Part shown: positions 1 through 3,000 of the stretch, in pieces
Position numbering within the stretch: position 1 is the first letter of the stretch
Layout: every line of letters starts with the position of its first letter
Source of the DNA: a virus
Lineage: Duplodnaviria > Heunggongvirae > Uroviricota > Caudoviricetes
Direction: 5' to 3' (one strand)
Length of the DNA: 16,968 nt
IMG/VR virus record: IMGVR_UViG_2660238209_000009
Position numbers: made by a program

Positions 1-3000
1 GTTCAGCCTGAATCACCGGTCGCCGATGCGACTGAACCTCAACCCGAATCGGTCATGATGCTGTAACGGGGAGTCAGGGCCATCAGTAAACAGCTGCTGG
101 CCTTTTTCATGTTGTGAGCTTCCGGATTGCGGGAGACGGGGTATGTACCAGATGGAAAAAATCACAACAGGTGTGTCATACACCACGTCAGCGGTGGGAA
201 CGGGCTACTGGTTCCTGCAGTTGCTGGACAGGGTTTCCCCGTCTCAGTGGGCGGCAATAGGCGTGCTGGGGAGTCTGCTGTTTGGTCTGCTGACGTACCT
301 GACGAACCTGTATTTCAAGATTAAAGAAGACCGGCGTAAGGCGGCGCGGGGAGAGTAAGCTGATGAGCAGGAAATTCCGCTATGGTTTATCAGCGGTAGT
401 TCTGGCGCTGATTGCCGCAGGTGCTTCTGCGCCTGAAATCCTCGACCAGTTTCTGGATGAAAAGGAAGGTAACCACACCACGGCATACCGTGATGGTGTG
501 GGTATCTGGACCATCTGCCGTGGAGCCACCCGGGTGGATGGTAAGCCTGTGATTCCTGGCATGAAGCTGTCGAAGGAAAAATGCGACCGGGTTAACGCTA
601 TCGAACGGGATAAGGCGCTGGCATGGGTGGCGAAGAACATCAGAGTGCCACTGACTGAACCCCAGAAAGCGGGTATTGCGTCATTCTGTCCTTACAACAT
701 TGGCCCCGGTAAGTGTTTCCCGTCGACGTTTTATAAACGAATTAATGCAGGTGATCGAAAAGGTGCCTGCGAAGCGATTCGCTGGTGGATTAAGGACGGT
801 GGCAGAGACTGCCGTATCCGCTCAAATAATTGCTACGGTCAGGTATCAAGACGTGACCAGGAGAGTGCGCTGTCATGCTGGGGTATCGACAGGTAAGCAG
901 AATATTTTGCTGAAAAATGACGTTGGCCAACGCGGGCAGATAACACGAAATCCTGCGAACTGGCAAAATGTAAGTGAATAAAGTCAACAAGATTGTTTCA
1001 TGAAGAGGCACCGTAATGGTGCCTTTGTCATTTCTGCGCTTCGCACAAGCGTAAATAAACCAAAGAACCTTTCAGGATGAGCCCTGGTGGATAACCGGCA
1101 GTGGTCTGGTTAACCCTCTTTGGGCTGGTTATTCCTGTGCGCAGGGTTCATCACTAAAAGGAAATAACCGATGAATATGATGACCGTGCCGTTTCACGGC
1201 GATTCTCTTTATGTGGTTAACCATAACGGCGAACCATACGTTCCCATGAAACCTGTCGTTGCGGGGATGGGGCTGGCCTGGCAATCACAGTTGGCTAAGT
1301 TAAGACAGCGTTTTGCGTCAACTATAACGGAAATCGTTATGGTTGCTGAGGATGGGAAACGACGCAATATGGTGTCCCTGCCGCTTCGAAAACTTGCAGG
1401 CTGGTTACAAACCATCAATCCCAACAAAGTAAAACCCGAAATCCGCGGCAAGGTAATCCAGTATCAGGAAGAGTGTGACGATGTTCTCTATGAATACTGG
1501 ACGAAGGGTTTTGTCGTTAATCCCCGTCGAATGAGTGTGATGGAAGAACTCAATCAGGCTTGCGCTGACATGAAACGGGATAAAAACATTGCCAGTGTGT
1601 TTGCTACCGGGCTGAATGAGTGGAAACAGGTTAAATCCGCGCATGTATCAAAAATCCGCACATTGATAAACGAAGCGAATCTGCTGATTGATTTTGTCCT
1701 GGCTGATACAGGCAAAGGGAAAATAACAAAGGCGGATTGATGGAGTGGTGGCTAATGATATCGGATAAACTCATAACGCTGGCGAAGATCCTCTGTGTAA
1801 TCGTCGGCATTTCATTTTTAGTCATGCTGGTTGCCATTTTCTTTTCCACCGCCTGGCGAGTCCTGACGTTATCGGGACTGGTGGGGTGAAAGAGAGATGA
1901 ACCGTGTTCTGTGTGTGGTGATTATTGTCCTGCTGGTAGCCTGTGGTGCGCTTAGTCTGGGGCTGAATCATTACCGCGATAACGCCATAACCTACAAAGA
2001 GCAGCGCGATAAAAAAGTCAGTGAGCTGGAGCTGGCAAATGCAACCATTACTGATATGCAGCAGCGCCAGCGTGATGTTGCTGCACTTGATGCCAGATAC
2101 TCGAGGGAATTAGCCGATGCGAGAGCTGAAAATGAAACTCTTCGCGCTGACGTTGCCGCTGGTTACCGCAGCCTGCGGATCAACGCCACCTGTCCAGGTC
2201 CCGTGCGTGAAGCCACCGGCACCGCCCGCGTGGATAATGCAACCGGCCCCCGACTGGCAGACACCGCTGAACGGGATTATTTCACCCTCAGAGAGAGGCT
2301 GATCACTATGCAAAAACAACTGGAAGGAACCCAGAAGTATATTAATGAGCAGTGCAGATAGAGTTGCCCATATCGATGGGCAACTCATGCAATTATTGTG
2401 AGCAATACACCCGCGCTTCCAGCGGAGTATAAATGCCTAAAGTAATAAAACCGAGCAATCCATTTACGAATGTTTGCTGGGTTTCTGTTTTAACAACATT
2501 TTCTGTGCCGCCACAAATTTTGGCTGCATCGACAGTTTTCTTCTGCCCAATTCCAGAAACGAAGAAATGATGGGTGATGGTTTCCTTTGGTGCTACTGCT
2601 GTCTGTTTGTTTTGAACAGTAAACGTCTGTTGAGCACATCCTGTAATAAGCAGGGCCAGCGCAGTAGCGAGTAGCATTTTTTTCATGGTGTTATTCCCGA
2701 TGCTTTTTGAAGTTCGCAGAATCGTATGTGTAGAAAATTAAACAAACCCTAAACAATGAGTTGAAATTTCATATTGTTAATATTTATTAATGTATGTCAG
2801 GTGCGATGAATCGTCATTGTATTCCCGGATTAACTATGTCCACAGCCCTGACGGGGAACTTCTCTGCGGGAGTGTGCGGGGATAATCAAAAACGATGCAC
2901 ACCGGGTTTTCTCATTTTTCACGAGATGGGAGCGATTTCCCGCGAAGCCGCCTGTCCGGTGCGGTGGTGGAAGAAACCGGATAAAACAACCGCATTGTGC

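Follow-up and report, generated by a model that had tools for sequence, protein, structure and literature searches.

Phages lambda and 21 achieve lysis with S, R and Rz/Rz1 alone, and in the Shiga toxin (Stx) phages considered here the toxin and lysis genes are transcribed from pR′ under the control of Q. Phage Mu encodes a releasin, gp25, a 99-residue DUF2730 protein with an N-out/C-in transmembrane domain (TMD) and a 73-residue acidic cytoplasmic domain (PMC9239132). Hücker et al. 2017 (PMC5597208) reported XECs191 of O157:H7 Sakai as a novel translated intergenic gene supported by ribosome profiling (RIBOseq); in LB it gave 30.0 (RNA) and 12.6 (RIBOseq) reads per kilobase per million mapped reads, a ribosomal coverage value of 0.43 and a coverage of 0.55, and was classed as ‘real’. 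The same study used a TTG start for XECs191, predicted its product to lie in the inner membrane with one transmembrane helix (S8 Table of PMC5597208), reported no Ka/Ks and left its location and function without comment. We have analysed a small open reading frame (ORF) at 1740-1889 on the + strand of a 16,968-nucleotide viral DNA, IMG/VR record IMGVR_UViG_2660238209_000009 (the window, meaning the whole stretch under analysis), in which it separates ant from the spanin gene Rz. This DNA is from a 933W-type Stx2-converting phage, whose late region it represents, and is 100% identical to many Stx2 phages over 1100-2400. The gene itself is not new, since it is annotated, belongs to a PHROG family (phrog_4906) and has been reported as translated; what is added here is strand-specific purifying selection, a probable true start (ATG 1755), its modular behaviour and the exclusion of the obvious families.

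Read directly, the ORF starts at ATG 1740-1742, runs for 49 sense codons and ends at TGA 1887-1889, exactly 7 nt (AAGAGAG) before the Rz ATG at 1897, as the original prediction had described. The overlap with the ant stop that it reported is also present, albeit as a single base shared between TGA 1738-1740 and ATG 1740-1742 (TGATG) and not in the four-base form ATGA. The 49-residue product is MEWWLMISDKLITLAKILCVIVGISFLVMLVAIFFSTAWRVLTLSGLVG. The first 4 kb alone contain 47 ORFs that reach 30 aa or more, so that a run of 49 codons is by itself unremarkable by chance expectation, and we therefore judged the reality of the ORF from its conservation and not from its presence.

Comparison of relatives indicates that 1740-1889 holds a genuine protein-coding gene under purifying selection. 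Our sample comprised 169 loci (individual loci carry L numbers below), representing 111 distinct contexts and 23 distinct alleles counted from Met6. The frame is kept in all 169, the sole length changes being in-frame (MIS/MS and a terminal GG); one copy (L129) has lost its stop, and in L014 a frameshift in ant fuses ant to the small ORF. Summed over ten representative alleles, the Nei-Gojobori ratio of non-synonymous to synonymous differences (pN/pS) is 0.40 in the ORF frame, falling to 0.16-0.3 for the deepest pairs; in the two remaining frames of the sense strand it reaches 0.96 and 1.53. When the same substitutions were placed at random sites a stop was created in 51-71% of trials, and the observed BLOSUM score was matched by none of 5,000 randomizations in four of six allele pairs (P=0.004 and P=0.08 in the other two). 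Both of the checks that had been proposed for related prophages, frame conservation and the balance of synonymous and non-synonymous change, were thus positive, and together with the presence of a close allele in published RIBOseq data they uphold the claim that a small membrane peptide is truly encoded. In the L058, L061, L072 and L076 prophages, ant is split by frameshifts and the neighbouring small ORF is intact.

The ratio by itself does not identify the selected strand. The antisense frame sharing third codon positions with the ORF (window 1631-1849, - strand) is free of stops in the ten representative alleles and in 22 of the 23 distinct ones, and its pN/pS is 0.45; since it is open with a similar ratio, dN/dS alone is unable to assign the strand, and the conserved element could be taken for an opposite-strand feature or an RNA element instead of the small ORF. 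We used a two-strand model in which 142 changes on a minimum spanning tree were classed by their effect on each strand and expressed as a rate per possible mutation. Changes synonymous on both strands occurred at 0.143 for transitions and 0.036 for transversions, and those synonymous on the sense strand only at 0.091 and 0.033, close to the fully synonymous rate; changes synonymous on the antisense strand only (0.037 and 0.009) were depleted as much as those non-synonymous on both (0.039 and 0.019). In a Poisson model, sense-synonymy raised the rate 2.37-fold (likelihood-ratio P=1.7e-4), and the effect of antisense-synonymy was not significant (1.27-fold, P=0.31). As sense-synonymy is the only significant effect, the constraint is on the + strand peptide, and the low antisense pN/pS is a geometric by-product of sense-strand selection. 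Moreover, the ends of the antisense ORF lie in unrelated flanking DNA, context by context, the ORF of the published RIBOseq is the sense ORF, and an Rfam search at E up to 1 returned no relevant family, giving two chance-level matches elsewhere in the region. We consider an antisense or RNA element very improbable.

The same relatives bear on where translation begins. Homology common to all of them extends from Met6 to the stop, defining a conserved core of 44 residues plus stop (MISDKL...SGLVG) at 1755-1889 (+), and the preceding five codons, MEWWL at 1740-1754 (+), form an optional N-terminal extension found in ant-linked alleles only. Between the window and ant-less relatives homology starts at Met6, that is at ATG 1755, and many genomic blastn matches span only 1758-1890. 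Among ant-linked alleles the extension reads MEWWL in 47 loci, MGWL in 67 and ME-TAG-WL in 5. It is not present in ant-less alleles, where a stop codon stands right upstream of the Met6-equivalent ATG and where most alleles, those of the L012, L013 and L091 types, have a strong, well-spaced Shine-Dalgarno (SD) sequence (GGGAGGA, GGGGG or AAGGGG; -8.4 to -11.3 kcal/mol); the SDs of the ant-less alleles L098 and L123 are weaker (-5.2 to -5.8 kcal/mol). In the window, an SD-like GGAG at 1742-1745 (+) lies 9 nt upstream of ATG 1755, with an anti-SD duplex of -6.0 kcal/mol. A second SD-like element, AAAGGCGGA at 1728-1736 (+), could serve ATG 1740 or TTG 1737 (-7.1 kcal/mol); it lies within the 3′ end of ant, and it is here that the annotators of phage P27 marked the ribosome-binding site (RBS). 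Because homology begins at Met6, most ant-less alleles place an SD before it and five loci carry a stop within the extension, the conserved start is probably the internal ATG 1755, giving a 44-residue product. The 49-residue form and the ant overlap are traits of one allele group and not of the gene: TGATG occurs in the window, but the upstream ATG is dispensable, as the five TAG loci show, and behind other genes the small gene follows after gaps of 5-20 nt with its own SD. Translational coupling to ant, as originally proposed, is thus not a conserved property, given the homology from Met6 and the stop and SD upstream of it in ant-less relatives.

The peptide is predicted to begin with a short stretch bearing charges (D, K, K), to cross the membrane with a strongly hydrophobic core and to end in a tail. 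The core, ILCVIVGISFLVMLVAIFF (1788-1844, +), corresponds to residues 17-35 of the 49-residue form, which are also the best 19-residue Kyte-Doolittle window (mean 3.14). AlphaFold2, run on a 17-sequence alignment, modelled one helix over residues 2-39 of the 44-residue form (mean predicted local distance difference test score 89.8), within which the core falls; with the Kyte-Doolittle mean, this agrees with the expectation that the product is mostly one hydrophobic helix. The C-terminal tail is weakly hydrophobic and contains Ser, Gly and Trp, ending in STAWRVLTLSGLVG in the window allele and in SLGWMMLSSSGMLG in other alleles, with at most one charge. Fold neighbours are uninformative for a lone helix. 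A duplicated Rz membrane anchor was considered as a source of the core (KILCVIV... versus RVLCVVI...) and rejected, since the Smith-Waterman score (z=2.4, P ~0.03 against shuffles) is too weak for such short hydrophobic segments.

The whole 49-residue product matches the hidden Markov model of phrog_4906 (‘unknown function’, PHROGs v4) from end to end (E=1.4e-33, 115.7 bits; residues 1-49 aligned with all 49 profile positions), and the divergent alleles of L013 and L098 match it at E ~1e-19 to 1e-20. In genomic slot and host range, too, the gene agrees with this family. Homologous DNA occurs at 4,653 places in 1,749 of 5,426 complete E. coli genomes (32%), with up to 11 copies per genome. The E. 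coli copies are labelled ‘hypothetical protein’ by the PGAP annotation pipeline, with RefSeq entries such as WP_001280932, WP_001280935 and WP_001284012, and the same label is used in the phage records PV189400 (a PHANOTATE call) and KU238067 (vBEcoSP27_551, with its RBS marked); AP004402 and other phage records omit the ORF. The description of the gene as unlisted holds, then, for the ORF track on which it was based and not for RefSeq E. coli genomes or some GenBank phage records. Of 50,697 phage records, 276 carry the small ORF, all of them Escherichia, Shigella or Stx phages. An exhaustive profile search of 1.84 billion protein representatives gave only 28 matches, all from the close family or fragments of it, so that there are no remote relatives to lend a function. 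The sole match among 185,579 species-representative genomes is a 328-bp contig (L094, NZ_JPLE01000251.1) labelled Xanthomonas pisi DSM 18956, which holds the 3′ end of ant and the small ORF; its allele, with a TAG in the five-codon extension, also occurs in E. coli-type viral contigs of our sample, and the contig is most likely E. coli contamination of the Xanthomonas assembly. The family is therefore very narrow, and its members all belong to lambdoid phages or prophages from E. coli and Shigella. Over the core from Met6 to the stop, the sequence of XECs191 (S10 Table of PMC5597208) equals the L068-type allele, the commonest of the sample (66 loci, ant-ORF-Rz architecture), and has the same MGWL extension. 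Full text searches with the peptide string and the database identifiers found no paper discussing the gene, and the survey of Stx-phage lysis cassettes by Pinto et al. 2021 does not mention it.

Across the sample the small gene is always downstream of an endolysin gene, and its neighbours vary. About 70 contexts, the window among them, have the order S21 holin, R21 lysozyme, ant, ORF, Rz; in about 25 others the place of ant is taken by a 60-aa ORF with a hydrophobic C-terminal segment (phrog_1115). In L012 the order is R, a 70-aa ORF (phrog_6632), the small ORF, a fragment of the 60-aa ORF, a 28-aa ORF and Rz; in L008, ant, the small ORF, a fragment of the 60-aa ORF and Rz. In L125 and L128, a 311-aa DNA methyltransferase stands between the small ORF and Rz. 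Contexts of the L013 type have two other holins, a GH108 endolysin, the 60-aa ORF, the small ORF and a 60-aa lipoprotein (phrog_7528), with no Rz detected, and L098 has multi-TMD holin-like genes, an M15-peptidase-like endolysin, another antirepressor-like gene, the small ORF and a lipoprotein, again with no Rz. The gap to Rz is 7 nt in nearly all contexts; elsewhere it is 140 nt or 939 nt, or Rz is missing. The interval between endolysin and Rz is a hot spot for inserted accessory genes, its cargo including ant, the 60-aa and 70-aa membrane ORFs, the DNA methyltransferase and the small lipoprotein gene, and within it the small ORF is a self-contained mosaic module. The methyltransferase of L125 and L128 (DPPY motif, ~3140-4075) starts 7 nt after the stop of the small ORF and overlaps the Rz start as ATGA; sitting exactly between the two genes, it marks the ORF-Rz junction as itself an insertion site.

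Several of these accessory genes recur. Wherever ant is missing, the small gene is preceded by the 60-aa ORF (MEKYKRILLRL...AKLVIALKS, hydrophobic in its C-terminal half; phrog_1115, of unknown function), for instance at 3806-3988 in L004, 2804-2986 in L011 and 2809-2991 in L013. Truncated 3′ halves of the same ORF lie downstream of the small gene in L008 (~4140-4253) and L012 (3096-3251), which suggests that these short hydrophobic ORFs underwent repeated illegitimate recombination. A predicted lipoprotein of 60-65 aa (phrog_7528, also of unknown function), with an LVGC or LAGC lipobox and a mature part of ~30 aa containing three Cys, is found at 3149-3331 in L013 and 3125-3322 in L098, 4-5 nt past the small gene in both of the cassette types in which Rz/Rz1 was not detected, and follows Rz in L123. 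At this length it is not an obvious candidate for a spanin partner.

What the peptide does can be approached from its setting. The small gene shares its strand with S, R and Rz, and a simple scan found no sigma-70-like promoter site on the + strand in 1-3200, from which we infer Q-dependent late transcription: the gene would be transcribed on the late transcript and the peptide made at the time of lysis. Translation would start from its own SD at ATG 1755, in the window allele perhaps helped by ribosomes ending at the ant stop 14 nt upstream, and by the positive-inside rule the peptide would be inserted N-in/C-out in the inner membrane. That this is a real gene for a single-helix membrane peptide, expressed late with the lysis genes, we hold with moderate confidence. 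Its presence in 32% of complete E. coli genomes and in 276 of the 50,697 phage records marks it as accessory, as does lysis by lambda and phage 21 with S, R and Rz/Rz1 alone. The peptide could be a dispensable factor whose helix, in contact with a helix of another membrane-anchored lysis protein, for example the holin or the Rz anchor, would tune when or how efficiently the envelope is disrupted. This role as a lysis modifier, a positional inference only, is put forward tentatively. A bolder form of it, in which phrog_4906 is an unrecognised class of lysis accessory factor, a minimal late helix that binds the holin or the Rz i-spanin anchor and so sets lysis timing, is a little more doubtful still; such binding may occur, for example, through a Cys-x3-Gly face. 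Were it true, the peptide would affect how much Shiga toxin and how many virions Stx phages release, and when, and modularity would let phrog_4906 be swapped between cassettes. Nearly every 933W-type Stx2a phage carries the gene in its lysis region, and roughly one-third of the E. coli genomes sequenced have it in prophages. In these phages Shiga toxin gets out of the cell through lysis; a conserved, selected membrane peptide at that position is a reasonable candidate modifier of lysis or Stx release.

A number of observations weigh against this view of a late lysis-associated peptide. Three unrelated holin/endolysin sets accompany the gene (S21/R21, GH108 and M15-peptidase-like), no Rz was found with the latter two and a methyltransferase may intervene before Rz; these facts speak against the peptide being dedicated to a single lysis protein. 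In the window allele, Arg40 in the C-terminal tail makes the topology ambiguous. The RIBOseq signal of XECs191 was low and came from uninduced cultures, so that it could equally reflect expression in the lysogen, and Sakai contains many near-identical copies of the prophage, which may confound it. The selection tests used a minimum spanning tree, not a recombination-aware phylogeny, and only 23 distinct alleles. Several of the same points would suit a moron unrelated to lysis, an inner-membrane peptide that aids the lysogen or the phage in some other way (superinfection exclusion, interference with host membrane proteins, stress tolerance) and owes its position to the insertion-tolerant R-Rz interval. 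That interval gathers unrelated cargo (ant, phrog_1115, phrog_6632, the DNA methyltransferase, the phrog_7528 lipoprotein), the gene occurs irrespective of the type of holin, endolysin or Rz, and ribosome occupancy was seen in uninduced cells. However, no promoter-like site lies upstream in the window, PADLOC gave no match, the low RIBOseq level fits spontaneous induction, and the packing with Rz is a tight 7 nt in nearly all contexts. We regard the moron and the lysis modifier as roughly equally likely, each a possibility to be held lightly.

The remaining explanations are less likely than either of these, as is the antisense or RNA element considered above. The peptide might be unimportant in itself, the ORF being a coupling leader at a recombination junction whose translation delivers ribosomes to the Rz start, or which carries the Rz RBS. 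In nearly all contexts 7 nt separate its stop from the Rz ATG, and its last codons form part of the G-rich Rz SD, but amino-acid identity is constrained (non-synonymous changes are depleted and those accepted are conservative) and the distance to Rz can also be 140 nt or 939 nt, or Rz can be lacking altogether, so that a leader seems improbable. About as improbable, or slightly more so, is a membrane-active type I toxin-like peptide or minimal holin-like pore former that kills or depolarizes the cell: although size and hydrophobicity resemble those of Hok/Ldr/TisB-class peptides and the smallest holins, there is no toxin or holin match in Pfam, NCBIfam or PHROG, neither a promoter nor an antisense RNA family was detected, the peptide has no conserved dual-start motif and no charged hydrophilic C-terminal tail of the kind typical of holins, and up to 11 copies per genome are tolerated.

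Returning to the window itself, the small ORF (1740-1889, +, 49 codons, TGA stop) stands among the genes of the late region. An S21-type pinholin at 143-358 (+; Pfam Phage_holin_2_1, E=7.2e-33) and an R21-type lysozyme with a hydrophobic N-terminal segment at 363-896 (+; Phage_lysozyme, E=2.9e-24) are the upstream lysis genes of the same late operon. The holin begins MYQMEK, with Met1 and Met4, the two-start layout known from phage 21, in which S71 is the antiholin and S68 the pinholin. Next comes ant at 1171-1740 (+; P22_AR_N and ORF11CD3 domains, E=8.5e-45), which is the upstream neighbour only in this allele group, a 60-aa or 70-aa ORF being found there at other loci. Downstream are the i-spanin gene Rz at 1897-2361 (+; Phage_lysis, E=1.6e-49) with Rz1 embedded within it at 2117-2302 (+; Rz1, E=3.1e-22), then, by gene assignment, bor at 2393-2686 (-) and the terminase genes from 3095 (+). 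Between bor and terS lies an 81-aa ORF (2794-3039, +) that other records list as a ‘hypothetical protein’; in PV189400 an automated annotation based on PHROGs makes it an ‘Rz-like spanin’, a name that seems doubtful. A consensus scan found a terminator-like hairpin in the interval from R to ant (1004-1026, +; a 10-bp stem followed by a T-rich tail). Late transcription has to pass through this hairpin on its way to Rz. A different terminator-like hairpin with a T-rich tail likewise follows R in L004 (~3743-3775), in the 60-aa-ORF context. The 22-nt string AGAATATTTTGCTGAAAAATGA occurs just past the R stop in both the window (899-920) and L004 (~3651-3672), and in L098 (~3327-3348) downstream of the lipoprotein gene; it may be a short conserved linker serving module exchange.

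Set beside known lysis proteins and toxins, the peptide lacks features that define each of four groups (holins, spanins, the Mu releasin, type I toxins), and searches of Pfam (E up to 0.1), NCBIfam and PADLOC assigned it to no family. Of the original prediction, the small single-helix membrane peptide in the lysis region is upheld; the functions put forward for it (antiholin-like, spanin-modulating or toxin-like) are candidates only. Like the holins and antiholins (S21 68/71 pinholin, lambda S105/S107), it is a small membrane protein of the lysis cassette with at least one TMD and, in the window allele, two possible in-frame starts. It differs from holins in its single, strongly hydrophobic TMD, it lacks the charged hydrophilic C-terminal cytoplasmic tail typical of them, no holin family in Pfam, NCBIfam or PHROG matches it, and the dual start is not conserved, the upstream start occurring only in ant-linked alleles and being interrupted by TAG in five loci; moreover, it coexists with bona fide holins of three types. 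As to spanins, only ~10-14 residues follow the TMD, with no lipobox and no periplasmic domain to bridge the envelope, and a genuine Rz/Rz1 pair lies directly downstream. Type I toxins (Hok, Ldr, TisB, Ibs) are similar in having ~30-50 residues and one hydrophobic helix; the present gene differs in being co-directional within a phage late operon, it matches no toxin family, and simple scans found no promoter or antisense RNA, an absence that is only suggestive. With the Mu releasin it shares the character of a non-holin, single-TMD accessory protein encoded near the endolysin gene; unlike the releasin, it is a peptide of 44-49 residues with no soluble domain or DUF2730 match, and it also adjoins a GH108 endolysin that has no hydrophobic N-terminal segment. 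In another prophage, the gene is represented by XECs191, whose ant-linked allele (MMGWLMISDKLITLVKSLCVLVG...SGLVG) differs from that of the window by three core substitutions and by the extension MGWL in place of MEWWL.

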